From NCBI GenBank assembly GCA_030615105.1, contig JAUWZV010000001.1, positions 1,399-65,398 on the forward strand: a stretch of 64,000 bases of DNA, in the 5' to 3' direction. The stretch comes from Desulfobacteraceae bacterium (GTDB taxonomy: Bacteria; Desulfobacterota; DSM-4660; Desulfatiglandales; B25-G16). This document shows, one piece after another, positions 20,399 through 37,038 of the stretch. Position numbers and translations under genes: made by a program. How positions within the stretch are numbered: position 1 is the stretch's first letter; each line of letters opens with the position of its first letter. Under the pieces are notes generated by a model that worked only from the letters and a program-made list of their open reading frames with translations, was not told the DNA's origin and searched no databases.

Positions 20399-21565
20399 AT
20401 GGGTCACGCAGTAGCCATTATCGGTACGGGTCAGACTCACTGTGGAAAAAGAACGGATGTTTCCTATCCTGAATTGATTTATGAGGCAGTAAGTAGGGCC
20501 TTTGAGGATTCCGGGCTGAGTCCGGATGATATTGAGGCCGTTGTGTCAGGCTCGATGCCTCCTGCCATGGAAGGTGTCAATAACCCCCACCTTTATTGGG
20601 CCGATGCCATGGGTGCCGGAGGAAAACCTCTCATAAGGATTGCGACCTGTGGTTCTACCGGCATATCGCTGGCTCATGCCGGTTTTTATCATGTGTCCTC
20701 AGGGCTTTTCGATCTGGTCCTGGTGGTGGGGGCAGAAAAGATGTATGAGGGAAACCCACAGGGGGTCATGGCCACTGTGGCAGATCCATTCTTTCAGAGG
20801 CCATTTTTGGCCGGTGCACCTGGGATCTTTGCACTTCAATCCAACGAATGGGCTCACCGTTATGGCCTTGAAGAGAAACGGGTGCGAATGGCTGCTGCCG
20901 AGTTATCAGTGCGAAACCATACGGATGCCCTGGATAATCCCTATGCTCACATTAAGGTTAAGATTGCTGTCGAGGATGTTCTTAAATCCCGTGTCATTGC
21001 TTATCCAGTCAGGATTCTGGATGTGTGCCCGGCCTCAGATGGTGCCTGCGCGGTTATCATGGCCTCGGAAAGAATGGTCAGAAAAATGGGGGCGAAGCCA
21101 GCCTGGATTCGTGGGGTAGGTTACTGTGGCGAAGAGGCATTTTTTGGTGAGGGAGACAAAGTGGTCTGGCAGGCTGCCATCAATGCGGCCAAAACAGCTT
21201 ACAAGCAGGCAGGCATAACAGATCCACGGAAAGAAATAGATGTGGCTGAGGTGTATAACCCTTTCACATTTCAGGAAATGCTTTTTTATGAGTGCTTTGG
21301 TTTTTGTGATTTTGGCCAGGCCTGCGAGCTTGTGGAGAAAGGGGTTGTTATGAGAGGAGGTGATCTCCCTTGCGATCCTTCCGGAGGTGTGCTTTGCACC
21401 AATCCCATCGGTGCAACCGGTTTACAGAGGGCCGCTGAGATCGCACTTCAGGTAACCAACAAGGCGGGTGACCATCAGATTCCCGGAGCAAGTACGGGAC
21501 TGACACATGCCATGGGAGGCCTTGATCAATTTAATGGGATTATGATCATTTCAAATTCATTATAG
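20399..21565 (+). CDS. SCP-x-type thiolase-like protein (Cys present)
   Basis: IRIATCGSTGISLAHA...VVGAEKM and CDPSGGV. It has CTNPIGATG where thiolases usually have GHPxGA(T/S)G. Confidence 0.8.
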   Translation: MGHAVAIIGTGQTHCGKRTDVSYPELIYEAVSRAFEDSGLSPDDIEAVVSGSMPPAMEGVNNPHLYWADAMGAGGKPLIRIATCGSTGISLAHAGFYHVSSGLFDLVLVVGAEKMYEGNPQGVMATVADPFFQRPFLAGAPGIFALQSNEWAHRYGLEEKRVRMAAAELSVRNHTDALDNPYAHIKVKIAVEDVLKSRVIAYPVRILDVCPASDGACAVIMASERMVRKMGAKPAWIRGVGYCGEEAFFGEGDKVVWQAAINAAKTAYKQAGITDPRKEIDVAEVYNPFTFQEMLFYECFGFCDFGQACELVEKGVVMRGGDLPCDPSGGVLCTNPIGATGLQRAAEIALQVTNKAGDHQIPGASTGLTHAMGGLDQFNGIMIISNSL

Positions 21566-21580: not shown

Positions 21581-22045
21581 ATGAGTGGAGAATCCAGAAT
21601 ATTAGAAGGCTACGTTAGTTTGCCCTATAAATGGGCAATGGGTGCTGCTACCACCCGTTTCTTTGAAGAATTAAAAAACAAGAAAATTATGGGAACAAAA
21701 TGTCCAAAATGTAATCGGGTTTTGATACCGGCTAGAAGCTTCTGTTCCCATTGCTTTGAGAAAATAGATGAGTGGAAGGAGGTTTCACAAGAAGGAACAC
21801 TTAGGACCTGGTGTACGGTAAATTTTTCTTATGAAGGGCAACCCAAGGAGCCTCCTTACATCCTCGGCATCATTGATCTGGATGGCGCGGATGTAGGACT
21901 TCCCCATTTTGTGGGAGGCGTGGATTTGGACGACTTTGAGGAAGCTGCCAAAAAGGTTCATATCGGAGGCAGGGTAAGGGCGGTCTGGAAAGAGAATAGA
22001 ACGGGGAATATCCTGGATATAGATTATTTCCAACCGGTTGAATAA
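21581..22045 (+). CDS. DUF35 zinc-ribbon / OB-fold protein (thiolase partner, BbsA-like)
   Basis: CPKCNRVLIPARSFCSHC rubredoxin-like ribbon followed by an OB-fold-like C-half. It lies immediately downstream of the thiolase pair. Confidence 0.8.
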   Translation: MSGESRILEGYVSLPYKWAMGAATTRFFEELKNKKIMGTKCPKCNRVLIPARSFCSHCFEKIDEWKEVSQEGTLRTWCTVNFSYEGQPKEPPYILGIIDLDGADVGLPHFVGGVDLDDFEEAAKKVHIGGRVRAVWKENRTGNILDIDYFQPVE

Positions 22046-22120: not shown

Positions 22121-23746
22121 ATGGTTAAGAAAGAGAGCAGATCTACCATTTCTGGGATTTCTCAGAAAATTTTCTACCCACGGGCAGACATTGTCCACAC
22201 AATGACTGAAGGGAAAGAGGAGAAACCAGGGGAATTTCCTTTCACTCGAGGAATTTTCCCCCAGGGCTACCGTCAACAGCCATGGATGGAGAGTTTGGCG
22301 AGCGGCTATGGATTACCTGAAAAAACCAACGAGCGGGAGAAGTACTTGTCTAAGGTCGGACAGGCGGGATACGGTGGCCGAGCGTCTATCAACCTGGTCT
22401 TTGATAGGCCTACGTTCTGCGGCATGGACAGTGATCATCCCATGGCTCAGAACGAATTGGGCGAGGTTGGTGTGATCATTGATTCCCTGATGGACATGGA
22501 GCGACTTTTTAAGGGCTTCCCCTTGGACAGATTGAACGTAGGTTTTATTGCTGACCGCTCAGGCCCTATCATTATGGCCATGTATGTGGCCCTTGCTGAC
22601 AAGCTTGGTATCTCTAGGCATAAGTTGAGGGGGATTGTCTGCAACAATCCTTTGACAGACTTCTACTGCAGCAAGACCCCGATGTTTCCACTCCGAGAGT
22701 GCCTTCGTCTGATGGTGGATTGCATCAAGTTTTGTACTGAAGAGGTGCCCAATTTCAACATTGCTCGAATTGGAGGTTACAACACCAGGGAACTGGGCAG
22801 TACTGCGATTCAGGAGATCGGTTTTAACTTAGCCATTGCAAAAACCATTGTGGAGGCCTGTGTAGAGGAAGGACTGAGTGTTGACAAATTTGCGGGCAAC
22901 ATCAGCTTTCAGTTTTCCCAGGGGAGCTACTTTTTCGAGGAGATTGCCAAGATACGCGCGGCGCGAAGGATTTGGGCCAAATTGCTGAAAGAAGGATTTG
23001 GTGCAGAGAAAGACTCTATTTGTCGGATGAAGATCCACATGCAGACTGCTGGCTCCAGCCTCACAGCACAGGAGCCCCTTAACAACATTGCTCGCATTGC
23101 GCTTCAGGTTTTGTCTGCGAGCCTCTCCGGCTGCCAGAGTATGCATATTGCCTCCTTTGATGAAGCCCTTGGCATTCCTACCGAAGAAGCTGCTAGTGTG
23201 GCTATCAAAACCTCCAAGATCGTGATGCACGAGACAGGAATAACAGATGTAGCTGACCCATTAGGTGGTTCCTATTATATGGAGGCTCTGACAGAGGAAA
23301 TTGAGAAGAGGATTGTGAAACTTATGGAGCGTATCGACGAACTTGGAGGAGCGATTAAGGCAATTGAGGAGGGGGTTTTCGAACAAGAGATTGCCGATGC
23401 CAGTTACTTGCTTCAAAAAGAGATATCTGAGGGCAAACGAGTTATCGTGGGGATGAATCGTTTTCAGGAGAAAGACCAGAAGCTGGAGTATAAGGTCTTT
23501 AGGCCCGATCCGAAGGTATCCAGCATAGCTATAGATCGTGTGAGGAAACTGAGGGAAGAGAGGGATCAGGAGCGGGCGGAAAAATGTATTGAACAAATTA
23601 GAGAAGCAGCGCGAAGAAATGAGGCACTAATGCCCCTCTATATCGAAGCTGCTAAGTCCAATGTCACGCTTGGGGAGATGATTAGAGCCCTGGAAGAGGG
23701 ACTGGGTACATTCCAATATTCGCCGATTATCTCCAGGGTTGAATAA
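22121..23746 (+). CDS. B12-dependent acyl-CoA mutase large (substrate-binding) subunit, paralog 1
   Basis: FPFTRGIFP, FFEEIAKIRAARRIWAKL, HMQTAGSSLTAQEPLNNIARIALQ, DEALGIPTEEA and DPLGGSYYMEALT are methylmalonyl-CoA-mutase family blocks. Confidence 0.85.
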   Translation: MVKKESRSTISGISQKIFYPRADIVHTMTEGKEEKPGEFPFTRGIFPQGYRQQPWMESLASGYGLPEKTNEREKYLSKVGQAGYGGRASINLVFDRPTFCGMDSDHPMAQNELGEVGVIIDSLMDMERLFKGFPLDRLNVGFIADRSGPIIMAMYVALADKLGISRHKLRGIVCNNPLTDFYCSKTPMFPLRECLRLMVDCIKFCTEEVPNFNIARIGGYNTRELGSTAIQEIGFNLAIAKTIVEACVEEGLSVDKFAGNISFQFSQGSYFFEEIAKIRAARRIWAKLLKEGFGAEKDSICRMKIHMQTAGSSLTAQEPLNNIARIALQVLSASLSGCQSMHIASFDEALGIPTEEAASVAIKTSKIVMHETGITDVADPLGGSYYMEALTEEIEKRIVKLMERIDELGGAIKAIEEGVFEQEIADASYLLQKEISEGKRVIVGMNRFQEKDQKLEYKVFRPDPKVSSIAIDRVRKLREERDQERAEKCIEQIREAARRNEALMPLYIEAAKSNVTLGEMIRALEEGLGTFQYSPIISRVE

Positions 23747-23760
23747 AGGGGAGGAATGAC

Positions 23761-24171
23761 GTGGACAAACAGAGAAAAATACGTGTGCTACTTGCAAAGG
23801 CAGGGTTGGATACCCATGAGAGGGGGGTGAAGCTGATTGCCGCCTCTCTGCGGGACGCCGGTATGGAGGTGATTTATAGTGGTGTGTTCCAAACGAGCAT
23901 GAGCATTACCCGTACCGCCCTCCAAGAGGATGTGGATGTCATTGGCCTGAGTTATTTGTGTGGAGCGCATCAATCATTGACTCAGGAGATCTTGAAAGAG
24001 CTTCAAAAAAACGGGCTGGGAGATGTAGCGGTTATCTGCGGCGGTATTATTCCTGGTGAAGACATCGAGCAGATGAAGGCCATAGGCGTCAAAGAGATTT
24101 ACGGTCCTGGTACACCTATGGAGAGAATTATCAAAGGTATACATGAATTGGCTGAATCCAGGATTCATTAG
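23761..24171 (+). CDS. cobalamin-binding small subunit, paralog 1
   Basis: GTG start with a GGGGAGG RBS. RVLLAKAGLDTHERGVK carries the DxHxxG motif, followed by a Rossmann-like B12-binding domain. Confidence 0.85.
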   Translation: MDKQRKIRVLLAKAGLDTHERGVKLIAASLRDAGMEVIYSGVFQTSMSITRTALQEDVDVIGLSYLCGAHQSLTQEILKELQKNGLGDVAVICGGIIPGEDIEQMKAIGVKEIYGPGTPMERIIKGIHELAESRIH

Positions 24172-24413
24172 ATTGTTATTTGAAATGAGGTTGTTCGCAC
24201 TATGTATGCTATACCCGATCTCTGAAACGAAAGCTCTAAGATCTTAGGGCATCATTGGAAGATATCTCCGTTTTGCGTAGGGATGAATAGCATAGTTGTT
24301 GAGGGATATGGGGGAATGATTCTCTCGACACGCGAGATAGTCCCTTCTTTGATGCCCCGGCCTTTGGTTGGGGAGTGATAGTGGGAAGCGAGCTTAAGGG
24401 AGGAGGAAGTATC

Positions 24414-26114
24414 ATGTTTGAAAAGGGTTTTCTAACACAGGTTAAAAAGAGAAAGACAGATTGGTTAGAGAAAAAATACTCTCAAGCGGTGGAAAGGTTT
24501 ACAGAGAGGAAAAAACGCTTCGAGACCAATGCTGGGATAGAAATCGACCCCCTTTACACACCTGATAATCTGGAAAAAGAGAATTATTTTGAAAAGATAA
24601 GTTTTCCTGGAGAATTCCCCTACACCCGGGGATCTTACCCCATAGGGTATCGCTCAAGATACTGGCAGCCTCGAGGGTATTGTGGATTTGGGACATCTGA
24701 AGAAACCAACGAAAGGCTGAAATTTGCCCTGCAACAGGGGGAGCCGGGGTTGAATGTTATTGTAGATCTGCCCACCTCCTATCATGGGATTGACGCGGAT
24801 GATCCGAGGGCCGAAGGAGAGGTTGGAAAAACCGGTGTCAGCATCAATTCCATTGAAGACATGCGGGATCTCTTTGAAGGGATTCCGATTGATAGGATTT
24901 CTATAACCTTTAATACCACCGGGTTGGTTATTATGGCTATGTACTTTGCGATGGCTCGGGAAAGAGGGGTCCCCTTTAAAAATCTTTGGGGAACTGCCCT
25001 TAATAACCCTTTAGCTTCTTACGTTTCCTGCAACTCTGCCTGCTTGCCTATCCCGGAAGATGCCCTAAGAGAATTAACAGATATCGTAGAGTTTGCTGTT
25101 AGAAACCTGCCTAAATGGAATCCTATGAACATTGGGTCCTATGAATATCGTGAAAATGGTGCCAACGCAATTCAAGAATTGGCCTTCATGTTCGGCAACG
25201 CCATGGCCTATACGGATTCTTTTATCCATAGAGGGCTGGATTTTGATGAATTCGCACCAAAATACGTTTTCTATACATCCGTTCAGACTAACTTATTTGA
25301 GGAGATAGCCAAGTTCCGTGCAGCGAGAAGAATCTGGGCAATGATCGCCCGAGATCGTTACAAAGCCAAGAATCCTGCTTCCATGATTTTCAGGATTCAC
25401 GCGCAGACCTCAGGATTCAGCATGACGGCAGAGCAACCCTTGAACAATATAGTCCGTGAGACGATTCAGAGCCTGGCAGCGGCTTTAGGTGGCACCAATT
25501 CTCTTTATACTAACTCTTATGATGAAGCCCTTTGCCTTCCCACGGAGGAGGCCCTTCGAACGGCCATGCGGGTTCAGCAGATTATTATGGAAGAGAGCGG
25601 TGTAGCCGATACCATCGATCCTTTAGGCGGTTCCTACTATGTGGAAACCCTAACAAACAAGATGGAAGAGCGGGTTTGTAGACTTATAAAGGAGATAGAT
25701 GATAGGGGAGGTATGGTTAAGGCTATTGAAAGCGGTTGGGTGCAATCTGAGTGTGAGCGCTCGATCGCCACCTATATGGACAGGGTGGAAAAAGGAGAAA
25801 TAGTTGTTGTGGGCTACAATAAATACCAGATCGATGAACCAGTACAATATGGTGTTTTTAGCGTGGATCCCAAATACGAACTCAAACAGCGAAATCGGCT
25901 GAAGAAACTGAGGGCAGAAAGGAACAAGGAAGAGGTTTCAAAGGCCCTGGATATGCTTCGGGAAGCGGCGAAGGGAAACGAAAATATGATGATTCCATGC
26001 ATGGAGGCAGCCCGCGCAAGGGCCACCTTTGGTGAGATGACAGAGGCCATTTACGGGCAAATGAGATCATTTAGAAGTCAATTTAAGGACCTGAAGATGA
26101 AGATGTATGCATAA
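24414..26114 (+). CDS. B12-dependent acyl-CoA mutase large subunit, paralog 2
   Basis: Track ORF 24375. ATG 24414 follows a GGGAGGAGGA RBS. Family blocks: FPYTRGSYP, LFEEIAKFRAARRIWAM, HAQTSGFSMTAEQPLNNIVRETIQ, DPLGGSYYVETLT. Confidence 0.85.
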   Translation: MFEKGFLTQVKKRKTDWLEKKYSQAVERFTERKKRFETNAGIEIDPLYTPDNLEKENYFEKISFPGEFPYTRGSYPIGYRSRYWQPRGYCGFGTSEETNERLKFALQQGEPGLNVIVDLPTSYHGIDADDPRAEGEVGKTGVSINSIEDMRDLFEGIPIDRISITFNTTGLVIMAMYFAMARERGVPFKNLWGTALNNPLASYVSCNSACLPIPEDALRELTDIVEFAVRNLPKWNPMNIGSYEYRENGANAIQELAFMFGNAMAYTDSFIHRGLDFDEFAPKYVFYTSVQTNLFEEIAKFRAARRIWAMIARDRYKAKNPASMIFRIHAQTSGFSMTAEQPLNNIVRETIQSLAAALGGTNSLYTNSYDEALCLPTEEALRTAMRVQQIIMEESGVADTIDPLGGSYYVETLTNKMEERVCRLIKEIDDRGGMVKAIESGWVQSECERSIATYMDRVEKGEIVVVGYNKYQIDEPVQYGVFSVDPKYELKQRNRLKKLRAERNKEEVSKALDMLREAAKGNENMMIPCMEAARARATFGEMTEAIYGQMRSFRSQFKDLKMKMYA

Positions 26115-26244
26115 GGCAGATTGTAATTTGTTATGCGGTGAAGAATGGTTTTGGATAGAGTGTTCCAGAATTGTGGGATCTAAAGCCATTTTCTGAACAC
26201 AACCTGACCAGTTATACTCAATACCTGATTTACGGAGAGTAGCT

Positions 26245-26643
26245 ATGTCCAATGGAAGGAAATTAAGAGTGCTTTTAGCAAAGCCTGGCTTGGACGGACA
26301 CGACTTAGGTATCAAGTTGGTGGCAAGAGCCTTGAGGAATGCCGGGATGGAGGTTGTGTACACTGGGCTTAACATAACTCCGGAAGAGACGGTAACCGTA
26401 TCAATCCAGGAGTCAGTGGATGTGATAGGGGTTAGTTATCTATCTGGTTCACATCTTCTGCTAACTGAAAAGATAATGGGAATACTCAAGGAAAAAGATG
26501 CTGGCCATTTTAAATTGGTAGTAGGTGGAATTATTCCAGAAGAGGACATCCAGAAATTGAAGCAGATGGGTGTTGCGGAGGTCTTCCGACCTGGCACATC
26601 TGTTAAAGAAATTGCGGATTCCATAGGCCGGATGGTTTGTTAA
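26245..26643 (+). CDS. cobalamin-binding small subunit, paralog 2
   Basis: RVLLAKPGLDGHDLGIK carries the DxHxxG motif. Confidence 0.85.
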   Translation: MSNGRKLRVLLAKPGLDGHDLGIKLVARALRNAGMEVVYTGLNITPEETVTVSIQESVDVIGVSYLSGSHLLLTEKIMGILKEKDAGHFKLVVGGIIPEEDIQKLKQMGVAEVFRPGTSVKEIADSIGRMVC

Positions 26644-26906
26644 AACGGTTTAATTTAGAGACTCGGCCGGTGCTAATATCGTGATGTTTTGCCTCAAGAT
26701 TCTTAAAGGGGATTGAGGTTTATATTTGCTTGAGCTATCGGGGTTTGTGCCCTGCCATGGGGGTTCTGAATGTGGGAGAGATCCAAGAATGGGTTGTAAA
26801 AATATAAGTGCCTCTTTTGCACGCATTCGTGGAAATAGGTCCTTTCATGCTGAGAAAAGAATGAGAGGGGAATATTATCTCAATATGGTGAGTTAGGAGA
26901 TTTTTC

Positions 26907-28721
26907 ATGTCTGGTGATACACTGGTTAGTCTTTTTCACAAAATGGCCTTGAAGAAAAAAGAACAGACGGCCTTAAGAAAAAAAGACTTTGGCGTCTGGA
27001 ATCCCATCAGCTGGAACGAATACAATGAACACGTCAAATACTTCTGCCTGGGGATGAGATCATTGGGGCTTAAAGCCGAAGACAAGGTGGGCATACTTGG
27101 AGAGCCCCGCTCTGAATGGATTTACGCTGAATTATCCACCCAAACTGCCGGGGCCATTGTGGTGGGGCTCTATTCGACAAGCCCACCTCCCCAGATCCAT
27201 TATATTCTCCACCATAGCGAGGCCGTATTTGTTATAGCCGAGGATCAGGAACAGGTAGATAAAATTTTGGAAATTAAAGATGATCTCACGATGCTCAAGC
27301 AGATCATTTATATGGATCCAAAAGGTCTCAGACATTACGAAGAGCCCATGCTCATAAGTTTTTCAAAGGTAGAGGAGTTAGGCAGGGAAATTGATGGAAG
27401 AGAACCCCATTTGTATAATGAATTGGTTGCCCAGGTTAAAGAAGATGACATTGCAATGATCATCTATACGTCTGGGACAACGGGCAATCCGAAAGGCGCC
27501 ATGATTTCCCATCACAATATCAAGGCCATGATCGATGATATGACAAAGATAACAGGTATTTGTGAAAAAGACTCTGTAGTCAGTTACCTTCCTTTGTGTC
27601 ACATCGCTGAACAGATTTTTTCTGTTTTTATTCCTTTAAAAGTTGGGGCAGTTTGTAATTTTGCCGAAAGCATAGAAACGGTAAACGAAAATATTCGTGA
27701 GATTTCTCCAACAATATTTCTCGGAGTTCCGAGAATTTGGGAGAAAATGCATAGCGATATCTTGGTGAAAATTGAGCGATCAACCCCCCTAAAACGCCTC
27801 CTTTTCAAGTTGTTCATGATACCTGGAGAAAAGATGGCACAAAAGAAATTTTCCAAGAAGCGAATTGGTCTCATCTTGAGAATTTTAAACTTTATCGCTT
27901 ACTATGGATTGTACCGCGCGCTGCAGGACAAATTAGGCCTTCTGAGAGGGAAACTGATCATAAGTGGAGCGGCAGCTATAGGCCCCGATGTGATTCAATT
28001 TTTTCATGCAATAGGCCTTAATGTTCGTCAAGCCTACGGCATGACTGAGACAGCAGGATTGACCTTCATACATCAAGATAACCAGGTCAAATTAGATACG
28101 GTTGGTAATAGTATTCCCAGCCTTTCAGTTAAGCTTGCAGAGGATGGTGAGATATTGAAGAAGGGGGAGTCTGTCTTTGTTGGATACTTCAAAGACCCTG
28201 AAAGCACTGCCGCCGTAAAGAAAGACGGCTGGCTCCATACGGGGGATATTGGGGAGTTCGATGAAGATGGCCAACTGAAGATAGTAGATAGAAAAAAAGA
28301 CCTGATTGTCACACCGGGTGGTAAAAATATTGCTCCTCAATATATCGAAAACAAACTTAAATTCAGTCCTTATATCGGTGAGGTGATTGTAATCGGTGAG
28401 AACAAAAGATACATCGCGTCTCTCATTCAGCTTAATCTGGATATGGTAAGCGAATGGGCCATGGCCCAGAAAATCTACTTTACGACCTATACGGATCTCT
28501 CCAGGAAACCGGAGGTTTACGAATTGATTGCCGACGAGATTCGAAATGTAAACAAAACGTTATCGCGTGTAGAGTCAATCAAGAAATTTCTGATTCTTGA
28601 AAAGATGTTGGATCACGATGATGAAGAGCTAACCGCCACCATGAAAATCAGACGAAAAAAACTGATACAACTTTACGAAGAAAAGATCGAGGAACTGTAT
28701 ACTAGTGGTTATACCGTTTAG
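26907..28721 (+). CDS. AMP-forming acyl-CoA ligase (long-chain-fatty-acid--CoA ligase family)
   Basis: IYTSGTTGNPKGAM AMP-binding motif, GYGMTE-like YGMTETAG, HTGDIGEFDEDGQLKIVDRKKD. 604 aa. Confidence 0.85.
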   Translation: MSGDTLVSLFHKMALKKKEQTALRKKDFGVWNPISWNEYNEHVKYFCLGMRSLGLKAEDKVGILGEPRSEWIYAELSTQTAGAIVVGLYSTSPPPQIHYILHHSEAVFVIAEDQEQVDKILEIKDDLTMLKQIIYMDPKGLRHYEEPMLISFSKVEELGREIDGREPHLYNELVAQVKEDDIAMIIYTSGTTGNPKGAMISHHNIKAMIDDMTKITGICEKDSVVSYLPLCHIAEQIFSVFIPLKVGAVCNFAESIETVNENIREISPTIFLGVPRIWEKMHSDILVKIERSTPLKRLLFKLFMIPGEKMAQKKFSKKRIGLILRILNFIAYYGLYRALQDKLGLLRGKLIISGAAAIGPDVIQFFHAIGLNVRQAYGMTETAGLTFIHQDNQVKLDTVGNSIPSLSVKLAEDGEILKKGESVFVGYFKDPESTAAVKKDGWLHTGDIGEFDEDGQLKIVDRKKDLIVTPGGKNIAPQYIENKLKFSPYIGEVIVIGENKRYIASLIQLNLDMVSEWAMAQKIYFTTYTDLSRKPEVYELIADEIRNVNKTLSRVESIKKFLILEKMLDHDDEELTATMKIRRKKLIQLYEEKIEELYTSGYTV

Positions 28722-28744
28722 ATTAAATAAATAGGATCTAAAGA

Positions 28745-29644
28745 ATGGGCGAAGAATTGGAATATCTAATTCAAACGATCATGGGGGGGCTATCCACAGG
28801 GAGCGTGTATGCCTTAATTGCCCTTGGGTTTGTTCTGATCTATAAAGCTACAGACGTTTTAAATTTTGCTCAGGGTGAACTGATGATGATGGGGGCCTTT
28901 TTCTGTTTCACGGCCATCGTCTATTTCAAACTTAGTTTCATTCCCGCCTTTTTGCTATCCCTTGTCTTTTCTGCGGTCATAGGCTTTCTCATCAATGTGA
29001 TCGCTATTCGGCCCATGGTAGGCAAACCCGTATTTTCCATAGTGATGATCACTATCGGCTTGGCTACCATTTTTCGAAGTATAGTTGGCCTCATTTTTGG
29101 ACATATTGAGAAACCATTTCCTTCGCCTTTTCCCATTGAAAAAGCCATCAATATAGGAGGCTTATACATCTCCATGGTGCATATCTGGATGATCTCCATT
29201 AGCATCATCTTCGTGCTTTTATTTTACCTCTTTTTCAAGTTCTCAATCCTCGGTATCGCCATGAAGGCCGCCGCCAATGAGCAGATAGCCACCATGCTAC
29301 AGGGCATCAATATCAAAAAAATGTTTGCCCTGTCATGGGGCATTGCTGCAATTACTTCCACGGTTGCAGGCGTTTTTCTGGCCAGTGCGAGCTTCATCCA
29401 TTGTGATATGGGGTTCATTGGTCTCAGGGCATTTCCAGCAATCGTTCTCGGTGGCTTGGATAGTGTGGCGGGAGGGGTCATCGGCGGATTTACCATTGGT
29501 TTGATTGAGAACTTGGCTGGTGCTTATTTAGATAAGGCCCTTGGGGGTGGGGTTAAGGAGATCACATCCTATGTCATTGTGATCTTTATCATGATGATCA
29601 AACCATATGGCCTTTTTGGAAAGGAACATATCGAAAGGGTATAA
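28745..29644 (+). CDS. LIV-type ABC transporter permease (LivH-like)
   Basis: Multi-pass membrane protein. NFAQGELMMMGAF and the C-terminal IKPYGLFGK are typical of LivH. Confidence 0.85.
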   Translation: MGEELEYLIQTIMGGLSTGSVYALIALGFVLIYKATDVLNFAQGELMMMGAFFCFTAIVYFKLSFIPAFLLSLVFSAVIGFLINVIAIRPMVGKPVFSIVMITIGLATIFRSIVGLIFGHIEKPFPSPFPIEKAINIGGLYISMVHIWMISISIIFVLLFYLFFKFSILGIAMKAAANEQIATMLQGINIKKMFALSWGIAAITSTVAGVFLASASFIHCDMGFIGLRAFPAIVLGGLDSVAGGVIGGFTIGLIENLAGAYLDKALGGGVKEITSYVIVIFIMMIKPYGLFGKEHIERV

Positions 29645-29650
29645 GTATTA

Positions 29651-30694
29651 ATGACTAGTGGCAACTTTAAAGAGACCTATAGGGAAGATATAAAGGTTTT
29701 CCAGACCTTTTTCGTCAAATTCTGGTTAGTCCTTTTTATTTTGATCATGCTCTTTCTTCCTTTCATCGCGGACAGATACTTTATCTATCTGGCCAATTTA
29801 TCGGGGATAGCGATCATAGGGGCATTAGGGATAAATCTACTTACCGGATATACCGGCCAGGTCTCACTGGGGCATGCTGCCTTCTTGGCCATTGGCGCTT
29901 ACACCGCAGCTATTTTGTCGTCCAGGTTTGGAATTCCCTTCTGGATCCTTATTTTTGTTTCAGGCATATCCGCTTCCCTGTTTGGCCTGATTATCGGTAT
30001 CCCCTCTTTAAGGTTACGAGGGCTTTATCTCGTGATTACTACTATGGCCTTCCAATTTATTGTAGAACATGTGCTCTTCCGATGGGAGACCCTGACGCAT
30101 GGGGACGAAGGGATTGCACTGCCTGTTCCAAGTATCGCAGGTTTCAGCTTTGAAACGGACCAGAGATTCTACTATCTAATCTTTGTTGCGACCGCACTTG
30201 CCATAATAACCATGAAGAATGTCATCCGGACAAGGACGGGGAGAGCCTTACAGGCGCTCAGGGACAGGGATATCATAGCTGAGACCATGGGTATCAACTT
30301 GGCAAAGTATAAACTCCTGTCCTTTATTGGCAGTTCATTTTATGCCGGTGTGGCAGGAGCGCTCTATGCTTACTACTTGGCTTTTATCAGTCCGGATCAT
30401 TTTAGCCTGATGGTCTCTATTCAGTACATCGCCATGATTATCGTTGGGGGTATGGGGACTATACTTGGCTCCATCTTCGGGGCTGTCTTCATTATCTTGC
30501 TTCCAGAGATGCTTGGCTTTATGAGCAGGGGTATTGCAAGCCACTTCCCTCTTTTCGAAACCGGTTTTGGAGATGTGAAAAACCTTGTTTATGGGCTCAT
30601 CATCGTTGGCTTTCTGATCTACCAGCCCGACGGGCTTTATGGGTATTGGATCAGGATCAAGACCTATTTTAAGACTTACCCGTTCACCTTTTAG
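29651..30694 (+). CDS. LIV-type ABC transporter permease (LivM-like)
   Basis: LLTGYTGQVSLGHAAFLAIGAY and GINLAKYKLLSFIGSSFYAGVAGALY are typical of LivM. Confidence 0.85.
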   Translation: MTSGNFKETYREDIKVFQTFFVKFWLVLFILIMLFLPFIADRYFIYLANLSGIAIIGALGINLLTGYTGQVSLGHAAFLAIGAYTAAILSSRFGIPFWILIFVSGISASLFGLIIGIPSLRLRGLYLVITTMAFQFIVEHVLFRWETLTHGDEGIALPVPSIAGFSFETDQRFYYLIFVATALAIITMKNVIRTRTGRALQALRDRDIIAETMGINLAKYKLLSFIGSSFYAGVAGALYAYYLAFISPDHFSLMVSIQYIAMIIVGGMGTILGSIFGAVFIILLPEMLGFMSRGIASHFPLFETGFGDVKNLVYGLIIVGFLIYQPDGLYGYWIRIKTYFKTYPFTF

Positions 30695-30808
30695 ACCTAT
30701 GATCCTAACGTGGGCGGAAAAATATCTTTAGAGGAAGGGAGGTGACAAATGGTTTTTGTTAATTTTGGGAATGAAATATTAATGTTAAACAATGAGGAGG
30801 TATAAAAA

Positions 30809-32020
30809 ATGAAAAAGCTGATGTTAATCATGGTGTTTTTTGCCGCTATGCTATTTGCAACACTGCCAGTTATGGCTGGTGGTGTTCCAGGCGTGGATGA
30901 AAAGACTATAAAGATTGGAATGCTGACAGATTTTTCCGGCCCCGGGAGGCATCCGGGACACGAGTGTTATATGGGCGTTAAAATGTGGGTGGATCAAGTG
31001 AATATGAAAGGCGGTATCAATGGTCGGAAGATCAAGCTTTTTTATGGTGACCATGGTTGGGATCCAAGCCGGGGTATGGCTGAGGCCAGGCGCTTAGTCG
31101 CCCAACATGACATTTTTGGCCTCGTTGGCACCTGTGCTAGCTCTGTCAATAAGGTCCTCATGCCATTTTTAAAAAAGGAGAAATTACCTAACATCGGTCC
31201 CATGTCTGTTTCCAGATTCCTGTGGGATCCGCCCAAGAAATACACTTTTGCCATCCTCACGGACACGAATCGTGTTTTCCAGGTTTTGGTGGAGTATATC
31301 GTTCAAGACCTTAAAGTGAAAAATCCCGCGATCGGTATTATCTATCAGGATGATGCATGGGGGAAGGATGGCCTTCGGGGCCTGAAGACGGCTGCCAAGA
31401 GGCATGGGATTACACTTGTAGCCGAGGAATCTTACAAACGGGGTAGCGTGGACTTTGCCACACAGATGCTGAATTGCAAGAGGGCTGGGGCCAAGTATAT
31501 TTTCCATCCAGGCTTCTCAGCTGCTATGGCAGGCATTATGCAAGAGGCCGCCAAAATTAATTATTCTCCAAAATTTCTTGGTGAGACAGGCTGCATGACT
31601 TTTTCAATGCTGAAGGTCGCCGGAGCATTGGCTAAAGATCAGATTTTCGGGTACCCCTGCGCCGTGGATGGTGTGGAAGTTTCGGGAATAAAAAAGCTCA
31701 AACAGATAAGCAACAAATACAGGCCGAAACTTGATTCCAAATTTAAATCGGGTGACAAACTGGATCCCAACTATATTATAGGCTATGGTGCAGGCTTAGT
31801 CTTCGGGGAAGGTTTGAAGAGAGCTGGTCGCGATATAACACGAGAAAAATTTATAAAGGCGTTGGAAAGCCTAAAGGATTGGGAAATGGGCGGCATCTTC
31901 GGCCCTGTTACTTATGGTCCGGATGATCGCGATGGATCTGGCTGGACCATGGTATATAAGGCAGATCCAGAGAACATGCGTTTTGTCCCAGTGACCGGCT
32001 TCAGAAAGCCCGCACAATAG
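30809..32020 (+). CDS. ABC transporter periplasmic substrate-binding protein (LivK / Peripla_BP_6 type)
   Basis: Signal peptide MKKLMLIMVFFAAMLFATLPVMAGG. IKIGMLTDFSGPG start, typical of this binding-protein family. Confidence 0.85.
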   Translation: MKKLMLIMVFFAAMLFATLPVMAGGVPGVDEKTIKIGMLTDFSGPGRHPGHECYMGVKMWVDQVNMKGGINGRKIKLFYGDHGWDPSRGMAEARRLVAQHDIFGLVGTCASSVNKVLMPFLKKEKLPNIGPMSVSRFLWDPPKKYTFAILTDTNRVFQVLVEYIVQDLKVKNPAIGIIYQDDAWGKDGLRGLKTAAKRHGITLVAEESYKRGSVDFATQMLNCKRAGAKYIFHPGFSAAMAGIMQEAAKINYSPKFLGETGCMTFSMLKVAGALAKDQIFGYPCAVDGVEVSGIKKLKQISNKYRPKLDSKFKSGDKLDPNYIIGYGAGLVFGEGLKRAGRDITREKFIKALESLKDWEMGGIFGPVTYGPDDRDGSGWTMVYKADPENMRFVPVTGFRKPAQ

Positions 32021-32275
32021 CGAGGGAAAAGGTATCTATAAATAATCCAATCAACTTCCTGCCCACCCGGGACTTAAACCTCAACCGAGGGGTCCTGGGT
32101 AGATGCAGGGATATAGGTATAAAGATGGACCTCCTAACCGGCACTGTAATGCCAACCCCAAGGTGTTTACCACAGGTTGGCCCACAGGTTAAAATAACCG
32201 GACTTGCTGGTGGATTTAATGATTGTTCCACTATTAAGGGTTTCCATTATTATTACTATTAAGGAGGTTAATATA

Positions 32276-33964
32276 ATGTTTGATGCAGAAACCCTAAAGA
32301 AGGATTTGGAAGACCGGAAAGCCTGGGAACGGTCCTTTAAAAAGCGATACTTGAAAAGCTTTGAAAACAAAACACATTCAGGAATTCCAGTTAAATCGGT
32401 CTATTCACCTTCGGATATTCTGGATTTTGACTTAAAAAAATGTCCTTCCCCCGGGAACTATCCATACACACGGGGAATCTACCCGGCCCAATACCAGTTT
32501 CAGGCCTGGATGAACCAGCAGGTACACGGATATGGGCAGGCGGAGGATACCCGGGAGAGGATGGACATATTAGTGAAGGAGGGGATGGAAGGTTACTTTG
32601 GGAACCTGGTTTTTAATCTGGTCCTGGATCTGGTCTCACAGGCGGGATTAGACCCGGATGATCCTGAGGCACGGGGAAAGGTTGGCCAGGTGGGAGTCCA
32701 TATTAGCTGCCTGAAAGACTTGGAGATTCTTTTTGATGGTTTGCCCCTTAAAAAGGTTAATGCCAGTTTTATTGTGGGTGAACCCTCTATCTGTTTGCTG
32801 GCCATGTACATTCTATACGGAGAAGGTCGTGGTGTACCAAAGGAAAATTTAAGAGGCAACACCATGAACTACCTATTGCGGGGGTTTAATTGGGATGTGG
32901 CCATGTATCCCCCAAAGAATGCCCTCAAGATCTCGGTTGAACTGATTCGCTACTGCTCCCGTTTCATGCCCACCTGGAATACGACCAATTTAAGTGGTTA
33001 TATTATTCGGGAGGCAGGCGCCTCTGCTGTCCAGGAACTGGCATTTACCCTTGCCAAGGGAATGAATCTTATCGAGACCTGCATGGAAGCAGGCCTTAAA
33101 CCAGATGATTTTGTCCCTCGCTTTGGCTTTCAACTCGGCTTTCACAACGACTTTTTCGAAGATATTGCCAAGTACCGGGCCTTGCGCCGGATGTGGGCAA
33201 CCATTAATCACGATCGATACGGGTGCCGGAATCCTAAGTCCCTCCAGGCCAGAATTCATACCCACACCTGTGGAAGTTCACTGGTGGCCCAGCAACCCAT
33301 GAATAACATCATCCGAGCGACTCTACAGACATTTGGGGCAGTTCTTGCTGGAACCAATGCCTTGCAGACGAGCGCTTATGATGAAGCTCTTTCAATTCCA
33401 ACGGAGCAGGCAGCCACTCTTGCTCTCAGGACCCAGCAGATTATCCAGCATGAGAGTGGGGTCACAAAAGTATCCGATCCACTTGCCGGAAGCTATTATC
33501 TGGAAAGGCTGACCGACGAAATGGAAAAGAGTGCCTATAAAATTCTGGACACGATCGAAGGGATGGGAGGTTTTATCAAGGCGTACGAAACGGGCTGGCT
33601 TAGGGAGCAAATTGCCGAGGAAGCATTGAAATGGCGGCATCGATTGGATAGTGTGGAGGAGGTCATAGTAGGTTTGAATCGCTACCAGGAAGAGGGAGAA
33701 AAGGTTGAGGTGCCGCACTTTCATGTAGATGAGAAAATCGAGCAACGAGCCATTGAAAGGATCCAGGAATACCGTAAAAACAGGGATCAGGGCAAGTGCC
33801 AGGAAGCATTAAATCGCCTCCGGAAAGTGGCCGTGAAGGTGGAGCAAGGCAACCGGCATTACTTTTTAATGGAGGCTCTGATTGATGCTTACAGAGCCAA
33901 GGCTACCCTTGGTGAGACCATGTCAATCCTGAAGGAAATCTTAGGTTATGGTTATGCTTACTGA
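32276..33964 (+). CDS. B12-dependent acyl-CoA mutase large subunit, paralog 3
   Basis: Track ORF 32204. ATG 32276 follows an AAGGAGGT RBS. Family blocks: YPYTRGIYP, FFEDIAKYRALRRMWATI, HTHTCGSSLVAQQPMNNIIRATLQ, DPLAGSYYLERLT. Confidence 0.85.
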   Translation: MFDAETLKKDLEDRKAWERSFKKRYLKSFENKTHSGIPVKSVYSPSDILDFDLKKCPSPGNYPYTRGIYPAQYQFQAWMNQQVHGYGQAEDTRERMDILVKEGMEGYFGNLVFNLVLDLVSQAGLDPDDPEARGKVGQVGVHISCLKDLEILFDGLPLKKVNASFIVGEPSICLLAMYILYGEGRGVPKENLRGNTMNYLLRGFNWDVAMYPPKNALKISVELIRYCSRFMPTWNTTNLSGYIIREAGASAVQELAFTLAKGMNLIETCMEAGLKPDDFVPRFGFQLGFHNDFFEDIAKYRALRRMWATINHDRYGCRNPKSLQARIHTHTCGSSLVAQQPMNNIIRATLQTFGAVLAGTNALQTSAYDEALSIPTEQAATLALRTQQIIQHESGVTKVSDPLAGSYYLERLTDEMEKSAYKILDTIEGMGGFIKAYETGWLREQIAEEALKWRHRLDSVEEVIVGLNRYQEEGEKVEVPHFHVDEKIEQRAIERIQEYRKNRDQGKCQEALNRLRKVAVKVEQGNRHYFLMEALIDAYRAKATLGETMSILKEILGYGYAY

Positions 33965-34000
33965 TGGGGTGGATATAGCTTTATTTTTGGAGTTGAGAGA

Positions 34001-34432
34001 ATGGCAGAGGGTACAACTAATCAGGCTAAAGAGGAATATGGTCGTTCAGGGCAAGATAGAAAAATAAGGGTATTATTGACCAAATCCCGGATGGATGCAC
34101 ATGATCGCGGGATCAGAGATGTGGCAAAGGAACTGAGTAATGCCGGGATGGAGGTCGTTTTTACCCGGTATGCACTGCCGGAGGAGATTGTGAAGACCGC
34201 CATTCAGGAGGGTTCGGATGTAATCGGAGTGAGTTGCTCTACTGGAGGGCATCTCTACGTGACGGAAAGGATTCAAGACTGTTTGGAAAAAGAAGGGATA
34301 AAAGAGATCAAGGTGATTTTTGGCGGGATCATACCGGACGTGGATGTGCCCAAGATGAAAGAAAGAGGCGTGGTGGGCATATTCGGACCGGGTTCTTCTG
34401 TCCAGGAGATCATCCGGGCAATTACTGAATGA
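34001..34432 (+). CDS. cobalamin-binding small subunit, paralog 3
   Basis: RVLLTKSRMDAHDRGIR carries the DxHxxG motif. Confidence 0.85.
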   Translation: MAEGTTNQAKEEYGRSGQDRKIRVLLTKSRMDAHDRGIRDVAKELSNAGMEVVFTRYALPEEIVKTAIQEGSDVIGVSCSTGGHLYVTERIQDCLEKEGIKEIKVIFGGIIPDVDVPKMKERGVVGIFGPGSSVQEIIRAITE

Positions 34433-34478
34433 AAACAGCCCCTGGCTGGCAGCTAAATGAATTGGAAAAGAGACTTTT

Positions 34479-35273
34479 ATGCTGGGAATCAAAAATCTCG
34501 AAATTACCTATCATGACATTATTCTGGTTATAAAAGGCATATCTTTGACAGTCAAAGATGGTAGTATGGTCGCCCTTTTAGGTGCCAATGGAGCAGGCAA
34601 AAGCACTATTCTGAAGGCGGTATCAGGGGTTCTCGAGGTCGAAGATGGCGATATTGAGGATGGAACTATTGATTTTGATGGGATTCGTCTTAATAACAAA
34701 ACCCCCCATTTCATTGTCAAAAAGGGTCTCATTCAAGTTCCAGAAGGCCGCCGTATCTTTGATGAACTCACCGTGGAAGAAAATATCCGGATTGGCTCTT
34801 TTCTGCGGAAGGATTCAAAGAAGATAAAAGAAGACTACGAAAATGTTCTGGCTTATTTCCCTTCTTTAGTCCACCTAAAGAAGCGCCTTGCCGGTTATCT
34901 TAGCGGAGGAGAACAGCAGATGCTGGCCATTGGTAGAGCCATGATGGCAAAACCACGATTGCTTATGCTCGACGAGCCGTCTCTGGGGTTGGCCCCTATA
35001 CTAGCTCATCAGGTTTTTAATAGGGTTAAGGAGTTTAATAGCAGGGAAGGGGTTTCTGTTTTGCTGGTCGAGCAAAATGCCATTATGGCCTTAGATGTGG
35101 TGGAGTATGGCTACATTATGGAAAACGGCAAAATCGTCTTGGACGGCCCAAGCCATAAACTCGTTGAAAACCCTGATATTAAGGAATTTTATTTGGGACT
35201 TACGGATGTGGGTGGGAAGAAGAGCTATCGGGATATCAAACATTACAAAAGAAGGAAGCGATGGCTTTCTTGA
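34479..35273 (+). CDS. LIV-type ABC transporter ATP-binding protein (LivF-like)
   Basis: Walker A GANGAGKST, signature LSGGEQQMLAIGRA, Walker B LLMLDEPSLGLAP. Basic C-terminal tail KHYKRRKRWLS. Confidence 0.85.
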   Translation: MLGIKNLEITYHDIILVIKGISLTVKDGSMVALLGANGAGKSTILKAVSGVLEVEDGDIEDGTIDFDGIRLNNKTPHFIVKKGLIQVPEGRRIFDELTVEENIRIGSFLRKDSKKIKEDYENVLAYFPSLVHLKKRLAGYLSGGEQQMLAIGRAMMAKPRLLMLDEPSLGLAPILAHQVFNRVKEFNSREGVSVLLVEQNAIMALDVVEYGYIMENGKIVLDGPSHKLVENPDIKEFYLGLTDVGGKKSYRDIKHYKRRKRWLS

Positions 35274-35301
35274 CCTTTTTTACAAATCCTTGGAGGTAGG
35301 G

Positions 35302-36747
35302 ATGGTCGATAATAAAGAAATTGAAAGGTTAAAGAGGACGTATGAAGCCTGGAAAGAAGAGGATTTAGAAGGGCCTATCAGGAAATACGGTGAACGGGTT
35401 GAGAGATTTGAAACAAGGTCGGAGATACCCGTTAAGCCTTTATACACGCCATTGGATATTGAAGGATTTGATTATCTGGAAAAACTCAATTTCCCGGGCA
35501 GGTATCCATTTACGCGAGGCATCTATGCAGAGGGGTACCGTACGAGGACTTGGTTCGTCCGGGGCTTGTTTGGATACGGAACGGCGGAAGAGACGAATCA
35601 GAGAATGAAATTCCTTATTCATCAAGGAGCGACTGGGCTTAACATTGTTTTTGACGCCCCCACGGGTTGGGAAGGCATAGACGCGGATAACCCATTGGCT
35701 ATGGGTGAAGTGGGTAAAAACGGGGTTTCTGTGAATACACTGAAAGATATGGAGGATATGTTCAAGGGACTCCCTGTTGAGAAATTGAATGTAACGTGGG
35801 CCTCCTGTGTTGGGGCATCAAACATACCCCTGACGGCTATGTATATTGCCATGGCCCAAAAGAGAGGTTTAGATATTTCTAAATTAAATGGGGCGGCCAT
35901 AAATGATATCTTTGTGGGATATTCCCTTAACGTCTGTTCTCTGCCTTACACCCATCCCAAAGACGCCCTAAAGGATTGGTGTGATGCAGTGGAACATGCC
36001 ATTTTGCACATGCCGAATTGGTTTCCGTGCTCCATTGCTTCTTATGAGATGGGTGAATCAGGAGCGACGCCCGTTCAACAGATCGCATTTACTATTGCTG
36101 CGGCCATCTCCTATACCAGAGCGCTTATGGAGCGAGGCCTCAAGGCAGAGCAGATTTCTCCAAAATATGCGGTTTTTCTATCCTGTGGGAATATTTTTTT
36201 AGAAGAGGTGGCCAAGTACCGTGCTCTGAGAAGAATGTGGGCCAAGACCTTCAGAGAGAAATTTGGGGTTACGTTAAAGAGAGGGCTGCAGTGCAGGATC
36301 CATACCCAGACCTCAGGATTGACCCTGAGGGCCGAGCAACCCCTAAATAATATTGTCAGAACGACATGCCAGAGTTTAGCTTCCATTTTCGGTGGAACCA
36401 ATTCCTTATACACAGACCCTTATGACGAGGTAGTGGGTCTCCCTACCGAAGAATCTCATCGTCTTGCAATGAGGACTCAACAGATCATCATAGAAGAAAC
36501 AGGGGTTGCCGATACTATCGATCCACTTGCTGGGTCCTATTACATTGAATCTCTCACGGACAAGGTGGAGGAGGAGGCCTGGAAGATAGTGGATAGGGTT
36601 GAGGAGATGGGCGGAATGCTGGAGGCTATTGAAAGACGGTATTTCCGGTCCCTGATTGATGAGTCTTACCATAGATATCTCAAAGCTGTGGAAAACAATG
36701 AAAAGGTTATTGTTGGATATAACAAATACCACCACACAGAAGAACTA
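35302..36747 (+). pseudogene. B12-dependent acyl-CoA mutase large subunit, paralog 4, C-terminally truncated
   Basis: ATG 35302 follows a GGAGGT RBS. The track ORF 35095 is a spurious upstream extension overlapping livF. Family blocks are present up to VIVGYNKYHHTEE. The last ~90 residues seen in paralogs 1-3 are replaced by the 291-bp repeat. No small subunit follows. Confidence 0.7.
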
Positions 36748-37038
36748 CCTATCAACAATCGGCAGAGGACCCCGGGCGTAAGCCCGGGGGTGAATGCCTT
36801 AATGAGCACGACCTTGATGTCTTTTCTTACGTTCCAAGGCTCCCGGCCTGGTCTTTTCAACGACTTATCTGCAGGGGAGTTTTGCCCCCTCCGCATTCCC
36901 CCGACAAGTCGGGGGCTGCGGTTTCCCCCGCTGATAAGTCGTGAAAAGGACGGCGGCCTCTCACCAGTCACTCAGAAAAAACATCAAGGCCTGCCATTGT
37001 CTCTAAGTGCCACGGGCGTAAGCCCGTGTGCATCTACT
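36748..37038 (+). repeat. 291-bp rod-hairpin repeat, copy 2
   Basis: Same orientation as 16504-16794, with 7 substitutions. It begins inside the mutase-4 reading frame. Confidence 0.85.

Follow-up and report, generated by a model that had tools for sequence, protein, structure and literature searches.

A Desulfobacteraceae gene cluster with four adenosylcobalamin-dependent mutase paralogs whose re-lined substrate pockets suggest new specificities

Background

To our knowledge, few substrate specificities of adenosylcobalamin (AdoCbl, a B12 cofactor)-dependent acyl-coenzyme A (CoA) mutases have been described, namely methylmalonyl-CoA, isobutyryl-/pivalyl-CoA, ethylmalonyl-CoA and 2-hydroxyisobutyryl-CoA. 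As far as we know, and in the sequences tested here, these classes share a near-identical channel and differ in it at two to four residues. Isobutyryl-CoA mutase (ICM) carries a Phe/Gln pair where methylmalonyl-CoA mutase (MCM) has Tyr89 and Arg207, a rule consistent with the FSTQQH class among database sequences, and pivalyl- and ethylmalonyl-CoA mutases (PCM and ECM) retain Gln197 and His244. A mutase has also been described in indoleacetate degradation. Here we describe four mutase large subunits (P1 to P4), the first three accompanied by B12-binding small subunits (S1 to S3), that are encoded in one gene cluster within a 64,000-nucleotide stretch of Desulfobacteraceae DNA (the window; positions 1,399 to 65,398 of contig JAUWZV010000001.1, assembly GCA_030615105.1). 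The host is probably a sulfate-reducing bacterium.

Methods

Residues are numbered as in Propionibacterium MutB, and the structures compared were 1REQ and 5REQ (MCM) and 4R3U (HcmA, large subunit of 2-hydroxyisobutyryl-CoA mutase, HCM). The alignment register was tested by HMMER pairwise alignment of P1 with 5REQ, a Y89F mutant structure that marks position 89 directly; by MAFFT alignment with MutB and HcmA, both alone and with about 490 homologs; and by hhalign, in which an ortholog profile of each paralog was aligned with a profile of 72 canonical mutases. Ratios of nonsynonymous to synonymous substitution rates (dN/dS) were calculated against the orthologous cluster of locus L001, which belongs to metagenome-assembled genome (MAG) GCA_043811775.1 and has about 80% nucleotide identity; the retained part of P4 was compared with a sister strain.

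Results

Pocket residues of the four paralogs

P1 to P4 match PF01642 (MM_CoA_mutase) with E values between 1e-150 and 1e-181 (501-602 bits, cut-off 22) and TIGR00641 with 473-597 bits (cut-off 304); over the two models together, E runs from 1e-142 to 1e-181. Only generic models, PF01642, TIGR00641 and TIGR00640, exceed their cut-offs for this set. The large subunits are 35-40% identical to one another, 32-40% to Propionibacterium MutB and 35-39% to Aquincola HcmA. As their mutual distance equals their distance to MutB and HcmA, they are ancient paralogs and not recent duplicates.

At the positions equivalent to Tyr89, Gln197, Arg207 and His244, P1 reads A/C/S/N, P2 Y/L/C/E, P3 V/M/D/I and P4 L/I/N/E. 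An earlier, sequence-only reading of this DNA had aligned the paralogs by eye. The twelve peptide strings that it quoted were all located in four plus-strand open reading frames (ORFs), and its register was correct at all 12 positions by HMMER, MAFFT and hhalign. Position 207 of P3 and P4 was settled by hhalign: both proteins have a one-residue deletion beside Arg207, where MAFFT wavers between W and D (P3) and between L and N (P4), and hhalign places D in P3 and N in P4, as first read. In the AlphaFold2 (AF2) model of P3, residues ~201-210, i.e. the Arg207 loop, are the sole low-confidence segment of the barrel. Elsewhere the three alignment methods agree, and none puts an Arg at 207; the register is therefore right, and the MCM Arg207 is missing from all four paralogs. 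The proposal that the carboxylate-binding Arg had been lost stands at position 207 but does not extend beyond it, for P1 carries a clade-invariant Arg119 and Lys or Arg at 208. The Tyr/Arg/His triad of MCM is conserved in none of the four, and the Phe/Gln pair of ICM is likewise found in none, both as had been read by eye.

In the same alignment, which holds 223 sequences of the MCM type and 44 of the ICM/HCM type, residues 197 and 244 never vary. Position 207 is invariant within each group (Arg in the MCM type, Gln in the ICM/HCM type), and position 89 is Tyr in 100% of the MCM group and Phe in 95% of the ICM/HCM group. Because the canonical groups are near-invariant at these positions, and because the orthologs of each paralog largely keep that paralog's own residues, the pocket residues of P1 to P4 are not chance drift.

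Channel, cofactor site and fold

The comparison was widened to 35 channel and adenosyl-pocket positions of MCM, a list of our own. MutB, HcmA and the ICM-like protein P0102 differ mutually at 4-7 of them. P1 to P4 differ from these three at 16-24 positions and among themselves at 14-22. Ser114 is replaced by Asn in all four paralogs; Thr166 and Gln197 are replaced in all four, as is Thr195 except in P2. P1 and P3 have lost Arg82 and Arg87 and share a 6-residue insertion ahead of the Ser114 strand. Among the residues that contact CoA in MCM, Thr85, Ser114, Thr166, Gln197 and Arg283 are also changed. Known members of the family are highly alike in the binding site, with few differing residues (PMC2847961), so that the degree of channel re-lining in P1 to P4 is unusual. 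Given the number of replaced channel residues, more than side-chain recognition may differ.

Tyr243, His328, Glu370, Gly91 and Trp84 are kept in P1 to P4, and Gln330 is kept except in P3, where it is His; of these, Tyr243, Glu370 and Gly91 are presumably contacts of the cofactor or its adenosyl group. The N-terminal barrel-entrance motifs PGxxPFTRG, W84 and Y79 are also kept. S1 to S3, together with S4 of the sister strain, carry the His-on DxHxxG, SxL and GG motifs. The AF2 model of P3 has a predicted local distance difference test score (pLDDT) of 91.6 and a predicted template-modelling score (pTM) of 0.92. Foldseek superposes it on 4r3u_A with a template-modelling (TM) score of 0.94 and a root-mean-square deviation of 1.8 A, and on MCM chains with TM scores of 0.88-0.91; the P3 fold is accordingly fully canonical. 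P1 has a weak additional match to glutamate mutase E (31 bits).

Conservation and selection

Orthologs of P1, one of them from a Ferrovibrio sp. genome, range from 82% to ~50% identity. Ala89, Asn114, Arg119 and Gln287 are conserved among them, as are Ser207 (Ala in a few distant ones) and, with few exceptions, Asn244. The 16 orthologs of P2, down to 53% identity, keep Tyr89 and Glu244, and 14 of them keep Cys207 (Thr in the two most distant); the next-nearest proteins to this clade are canonical archaeal/Thermotogae-type MCMs at ~50% identity. Nine close orthologs of P4 (79-100%) have Leu89, Ile197 and Asn207. The P3 family, drawn from genome and metagenome loci (L007-L009 and L014-L018) at an identity of at least 42%, largely keeps Val89, Met197, Asp207 and His330, with exceptions among the ~51% relatives. 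His330 of P3, encoded at window position ~33260, is the equivalent of MutB Gln330 and may stand in for the lost His244.

Within the clades, the mean majority frequency is 0.86-0.96 at pocket positions and 0.74-0.89 over the whole protein, and the pockets differ between clades. The dN/dS values are 0.05 (P1), 0.09 (P2), 0.07 (P3), 0.06 (S2) and 0.11 (S3), and 0.08 for the retained part of P4. S1 and its counterpart from this comparison share 93 identical residues (~70%) in local alignment, with N-termini offset by 3-4 residues. Each pocket signature thus appears to be selected and not to be a product of decay. Proteins of this kind are not rare: when representatives of 50%-identity clusters were aligned, only 74 of the 146 closest to P4 had His244, so that about half lack it. 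In a rough neighbor-joining tree (distances, no support values), P1 and P3 fall inside a large non-canonical radiation, P2 and P4 are sister subfamilies, and none of the four belongs to the MCM, ICM or HCM clade. To judge from these alignments, each large subunit is an ancient, separately conserved and uncharacterised subfamily of its own.

Gene neighborhoods in relatives

The sister strain (ENA ERZ24794679; loci L002/L010) is 98.5% identical over 21960-36752. At positions 1-4618 of L001 the P1 ortholog is inverted and adjoins an NMO-family flavoprotein and two HGD-D-type genes (2-hydroxyacyl-CoA dehydratase/benzoyl-CoA reductase-like) that do not occur in the window. A Desulfobacteraceae MAG has a P3 ortholog at 84%. 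TetR genes adjoin the P1 orthologs of L001, L004 and L013; an acyl-CoA dehydrogenase (ACAD) neighbors mutases of these types in L004, L005, L012, L013 and L016; and the thiolase-like pair of the cluster is also present in L001 and L016. In L012, from a distant MAG (GCA_024711865.1, 10001-14136), a P2-type pair (64%) and a P1-type pair (62%) directly adjoin each other between an ACAD and an acetyl-CoA hydrolase/transferase (CoA-transferase). Distant genomes thus share the P1-P2 pairing, and the two enzyme types may serve one pathway and not independent ones.

In L004 and L013 (Ferrovibrio sp. GCA_019636075.1 and JGI Ga0183872), the P1-type mutase and its small subunit are followed by MeaB, an enoyl-CoA hydratase (ECH) and NMO, near AtuA, ACAD, TetR and a ligase/ABC transporter unit. 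The linkage of MeaB to these P1-type genes supports their being genuine AdoCbl enzymes. This layout resembles an acyclic-terpene (Atu) cluster, and no carboxylase was seen among the called genes in the ±10-kb flanks. Another P1-type gene adjoins PhyH, a ligase, ACAD and a 3-hydroxyacyl-CoA dehydrogenase, and a P3-type gene at 53% has ECH, ACAD, CoA-transferase and the same thiolase-like pair as neighbors. By its predicted functions, every inspected neighborhood is one of CoA-ester catabolism of an acid. The AtuA and PhyH links hint at branched, isoprenoid-like acids, which we regard as a lead only.

Layout of the cluster

The cluster occupies 17.0-36.7 kb on the plus strand as a single co-directional gene set with intergenic gaps of 6-263 nt, in the order given in Table 1. 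The starts of P2, P3 and P4 were set by ribosome-binding sites.

Table 1. Features of the mutase gene cluster and its bracketing repeats, in window coordinates
Feature	Position	Strand	Matches and remarks
291-nt structured direct repeat, left copy	16504..16794		98% identical to 36748-37038
TetR-family regulator	17089..17736	+	TetR_N + TetR_C_24
Acyl-CoA dehydrogenase (ACAD)	17962..19119	+	Acyl-CoA_dh N, M and C domains
SCP-x-type thiolase-like protein 1	19247..20386	+	Thiolase_C_1, weak Thiolase_N; NCBIfam 'thiolase domain-containing' below cut-off only
SCP-x-type thiolase-like protein 2	20399..21565	+	Thiolase_C_1 + Thiolase_N
DUF35/ChsH2-type OB-fold + zinc-ribbon protein, thiolase-like partner	21581..22045	+	OB_ChsH2_C + zf-ChsH2
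P1, mutase large subunit, 541 aa	22121..23746	+	PF01642 E 1e-166; A89/C197/S207/N244, R119, Q287
S1, B12-binding small subunit, 136 aa	23761..24171	+	PF02310, TIGR00640; DTHERG, SYL and GG motifs
P2, mutase large subunit, 566 aa	24414..26114 (ORF opens 24375)	+	PF01642 E 1e-180; Y89/L197/C207/E244
S2, B12-binding small subunit, 132 aa	26245..26643	+	PF02310; DGHDLG motif
AMP-forming acyl-CoA ligase, FadD11-like, long-chain type	26907..28721	+	AMP-binding, AMP-binding_C_3; best NCBIfam model FadD11, below cut-off
ABC importer, LivH/LivM-type permease	28745..29644	+	BPD_transp_2
ABC importer, LivH/LivM-type permease	29651..30694	+	BPD_transp_2
ABC importer, periplasmic binding protein	30809..32020	+	Peripla_BP_6
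P3, mutase large subunit, 562 aa	32276..33964 (ORF opens 32204)	+	PF01642 E 2e-168; V89/M197/D207/I244, Q330 to His
S3, B12-binding small subunit, 143 aa	34001..34432	+	PF02310; DAHDRG motif
ABC transporter ATPase, LivF-like	34479..35273	+	ABC_tran
P4, mutase large subunit, cut after codon 482 of 569	35302..36747 (ORF opens 35095)	+	L89/I197/N207/E244; no small subunit after
291-nt repeat, right copy	36748..37038		fused in frame to P4

Truncation of P4, repeats and island features

Position 36747, which had been read as the end of P4, is not a natural gene end but a truncation. The Pfam match of P4 covers profile positions 2-444 of 512 only, the last 87 residues are missing, and its cofactor subunit is absent from the window. 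From 36748 the ORF enters a 291-nt repeat in frame and reads through to 37080; NCBI lists this read-through as the 592-aa product P0389. The match to the sister strain (L010) stops at 36752. Beyond this point the sister strain carries the remainder of P4 (P0390, 569 aa in full), S4 (DVHDVG), a second ABC ATPase and ECH, none of which occurs anywhere in the window. Either the missing DNA has truly been deleted, or the assembly was joined at the repeat. P4 of this assembly is probably inactive, leaving at most three functional mutases here. L006 (3008-3568, a Desulfobacteraceae MAG) has only an internal P4-like fragment, which is joined to the ORF of an ABC ATPase. Decay of P4 may thus extend beyond a single lineage, or the MAG contigs may be mis-joined at the same spot.

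The 291-nt repeat brackets the cluster, and a partial third copy lies at 10001-10159 (87% identity). It is GC-rich and strongly self-pairing (minimum free energy about -138/-156 kcal/mol), has no counterpart in Rfam and occurs in none of the related loci examined; it may be an element similar to a miniature inverted-repeat transposable element (MITE) or a structured RNA. A 174-aa ORF (16312-16836) runs largely through the left repeat and has ~100 residues in common with the tail of the P4 read-through. The repeat-derived parts of both are probably annotation artefacts.

The cluster (18000-38000) has a GC content of 0.43-0.50 and a positive GC skew throughout; the GC content of its flanks is 0.35-0.41. 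An integrated element at 1-9250 encodes a primase/AAA_25 protein (1304-3103), an HTH protein and an ERCC4 nuclease, and its tyrosine integrase (7932-9128) abuts a tRNA gene (9163-9246, minus strand). The bracketing repeats, the higher GC content and the integrase/primase element with its tRNA upstream suggest that the cluster is an acquired island, i.e. horizontally acquired.

Elsewhere in the window, CoA_binding and Succ_CoA_lig domains lie on two overlapping ORFs at 11076-12475 (minus strand); this ADP-forming acyl-CoA synthetase-like gene is probably frameshifted or split. An intergenic repeat with a 94-108-nt unit ending GGTCTGGGCCAGGG occurs at 40156-40249, 40346-40439, 51753-51846 and 48936-49043, as three direct copies and one inverted copy. 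A 77-nt intergenic repeat has two copies, 91% identical, at 40489-40565 and 57460-57536.

Discussion

We consider it rather probable that P1 to P4 are four AdoCbl mutases of new specificity that act on substrates without the MCM-type carboxylate contact. Because the pockets match no tested mutase, and because each subfamily is its own and conserved, the substrates are probably new to the enzyme class. At the level of subfamilies, the residue patterns argue well for four distinct and uncharacterised specificities. The earlier suggestion of four possibly new specificities is thus borne out insofar as the paralogs form separate conserved subfamilies that match no MCM, ICM or HCM signature, but not for a fully functional set in this genome, where P4 is truncated and no more than three are functional.

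In the pathway that we envisage, a carboxylic acid would be taken up by the Liv-type ABC transporter and activated to its CoA thioester by the AMP-forming ligase. One or more radical 1,2-shifts of the thioester-bearing carbon would follow, each mutase acting on a different acyl-CoA, and would yield isomers that are degradable where the branched, alicyclic or hydroxylated originals resist beta-oxidation. These isomers would then be dehydrogenated by the acyl-CoA dehydrogenase and cleaved by the thiolase-like pair with its DUF35 partner. The putative CoA-ester substrates would have no free carboxylate of the kind held by Arg207 in MCM. Their acyl groups would most probably be bulky or branched and lipophilic or hydroxylated, with branches that prevent beta-oxidation. 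The enzymes would be catalytically competent, and the carbonyl-polarising role of His244 would pass to residue 244 itself in P1, P2 and P4 (Asn or Glu) and to His330 in P3.

Several observations weigh against this interpretation. Every one of the 267 canonical-signature sequences has His244 and Gln197, and P1 to P4 have lost both; MCM mutated at His244 is 100- to 1000-fold less active, and the loss of this residue could mean different chemistry or inactivity. Residue 244 is E, G or A in the P4 clade and I, L, G, Q or N in the wider P3 family. About half of the residues that line the CoA channel are changed, so that CoA binding is only putative. The conserved Arg119 and Lys208 of P1 could bind an anionic group. 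The scanned ORFs of the window include neither MeaB nor an adenosyltransferase, and the cluster is without a 3-hydroxyacyl-CoA dehydrogenase. Full-text searches found no literature on any of the four subfamilies, and activity is therefore assumed; mutases are not mentioned in a paper on catabolism in Desulfobacteraceae.

The likeliest rival, which we nonetheless judge improbable, holds that P1 to P4 are merely divergent and perhaps promiscuous isobutyryl-, pivalyl- or 2-hydroxyisobutyryl-CoA mutases. They would then catalyse known reactions on short branched acyl-CoAs that derive from branched-chain fatty acids or amino acids. A small or hydrophobic residue at 89 (A, V and L in P1, P3 and P4) and the absence of Arg207 follow the logic of ICM, PCM and HCM, Leu89 of P4 is the residue reported for the native pivalyl-CoA mutase, and HcmA is the best match in the Protein Data Bank (PDB) for P1 and P3. 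Yet ICM-like enzymes and HCM keep Gln197, Gln207, His244, Ser114, Thr166 and Thr195, of which P1 to P4 retain only Thr195 (in P2), and the 16-24 channel differences far exceed the 4-7 among the known classes. Scores against the IcmF equivalog NF045497 are 226-262 bits, below the cut-off of 1500, the ligase of the cluster is of the long-chain FadD type, and purifying selection on four paralogs speaks against redundancy. We give still less credence to anionic or dicarboxylic acyl-CoA substrates, e.g. alkyl- or arylsuccinyl-CoA, bound through a carboxylate-binding residue relocated in the pocket. The basic residues of P1 at 119 and 208 would suit this proposal, as would relatives labelled Desulfobacteraceae or Desulfobacteria, lineages that include hydrocarbon degraders. 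Such rearrangements have also been proposed in anaerobic hydrocarbon degradation (PMC2847961). Against it, the scanned window ORFs contain no alkyl- or benzylsuccinate synthase (glycyl-radical enzyme), carboxyltransferase or decarboxylase; the pocket Asp of P3 and Glu of P2 and P4 would repel a carboxylate; and the importer and ligase point to a free acid, not a hydrocarbon, as growth substrate.

Catalytically dead paralogs with a structural or regulatory role, like MutA, or genes in decay would account for the missing His244 and Gln197, the shortened P4 here and its fragment in L006, and the lack of MeaB among the scanned window ORFs. We think this very unlikely, since B12-binding subunits (S1-S3 here) have an intact DxHxxG motif, the adenosyl-contact residues are retained, the dN/dS values are 0.05-0.11 with the pocket as the best-conserved part in each clade, and MeaB is linked to P1 orthologs in other genomes. 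P1 is moreover closer to the catalytic alpha chain of MCM (1req_A, E 1e-84) than to MutA (1e1c_B, E 2e-24). Least credible in our view is that the acyl-CoA mutase scaffold here serves another B12 rearrangement, with a substrate that is not a CoA thioester or a migrating group other than the thioester carbonyl. The replaced CoA contacts noted above, including the loss of Arg82 and Arg87 in P1 and P3, would fit it, as would the weak glutamate mutase E match of P1. However, the ligase, ACAD and thiolase-like genes, and ECH in relatives and the sister strain, place CoA-ester metabolism at every inspected locus, and the barrel-entrance motifs are retained.

A wider reading, which we put forward only tentatively and hold to be doubtful, places P1 to P4 in a very large unexplored radiation of AdoCbl mutases in which the whole channel is re-lined and bulky lipophilic acyl-CoAs are rearranged with a different carbonyl-activating residue; the substrates might then be isoprenoid-derived, alicyclic/naphthenic or quaternary-carbon acids. 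If so, anaerobes and some Alphaproteobacteria would have a B12-based bypass of beta-oxidation blocks that lies outside current pathway maps, and the P1-type linkage with AtuA, ACAD, ECH, MeaB and NMO in Ferrovibrio-like genomes would mark a carboxylase-independent branch of the acyclic-terpene type.

With respect to the four new specificities that we favor, four subfamilies with re-lined channels stand together in one operon-like cluster beside an importer and a ligase, and each is conserved in other metagenomes. The pairs of large and small subunits are clonable candidates for new radical carbon-skeleton rearrangements, of relevance to the anaerobic breakdown of branched and alicyclic acids and to the biocatalysis of 1,2-shifts that are hard for chemistry. 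The missing His244 puts to the test the accepted view that the rearrangement needs this histidine, and the cluster offers a concrete starting point in a large region of the B12 mutase family that is still unexplored.

Comparison with characterised mutases

MutA, the non-catalytic beta chain of bacterial MCM, is likewise a paralog without the canonical active-site residues, but it binds neither substrate nor cofactor, whereas P1 to P4 keep the adenosyl-contact residues and P1 to P3 have their own B12 subunits here. Two pathways were considered and rejected. The acetone/ketone pathway of Desulfococcus/Desulfosarcina (PMC7888143) has no counterpart here to its thiamine diphosphate (TDP)-dependent enzyme, MeaB or dehydrogenase, and its mutase is HCM-type by activity. 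The anaerobic alkane pathway was rejected because the scanned window ORFs include no glycyl-radical or carboxyltransferase genes. The mutases proposed for anaerobic alkane and pivalate degradation share with this system a likely anaerobic Thermodesulfobacteriota host and the removal of beta-oxidation blocks by skeleton rearrangement (PMC2847961). They differ in that alkylsuccinyl-CoA has a carboxylate, while Arg207 and hydrocarbon-activating genes are missing here.

ICM, IcmF and pivalyl-CoA mutase act on uncharged acyl substrates and resemble P1, P3 and P4 in having a non-Tyr residue at 89 and no Arg207. The Phe/Gln pair together with Gln197 and His244, present in 42 ICM-like database sequences with the FSTQQH signature, occurs in no paralog, nor do P1 to P4 have the fused G-protein of IcmF. 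MCM (P. shermanii MutB, 1REQ; human MMUT, 2XIJ) has the superfamily, fold and cofactor motifs in common with P1 to P4. Among them P2 and P4 are nearest to the archaeal/Thermotogae-type MCMs (~48-50% identity), and P2 retains Tyr89, Arg82 and Arg87. In contrast to MCM, all four lack Arg207, Gln197 and His244, their large subunits are unfused to a B12 domain, and their scores of 422, 509, 444 and 377 bits against the NCBIfam MCM equivalog NF006944 lie below its cut-off of 876.

HcmA, from the 2-hydroxyisobutyryl-CoA mutase HcmAB of Aquincola tertiaricarbonis, has Thr85, Arg87, Ser114, Thr166, Thr195, Gln197, Gln at 207, His244, Ile at 89 and Asp117; of this set P1 to P4 keep only Arg87 (P2 and P4) and Thr195 (P2). 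In the columns of its Ile90, Asp117, Gln208 and His245 (4R3U numbering), P1 has A, V, S, N; P2 has Y, I, C, E; P3 has V, V, D, I; and P4 has L, V, N, E. HcmA nevertheless shares with the four paralogs the absence of Arg at 207, is the best PDB match of P1 (4r3u, E 2.7e-123) and the best structural match of the P3 model, and is organised, as here, with separate large (~560 aa) and small (~135 aa) subunits.

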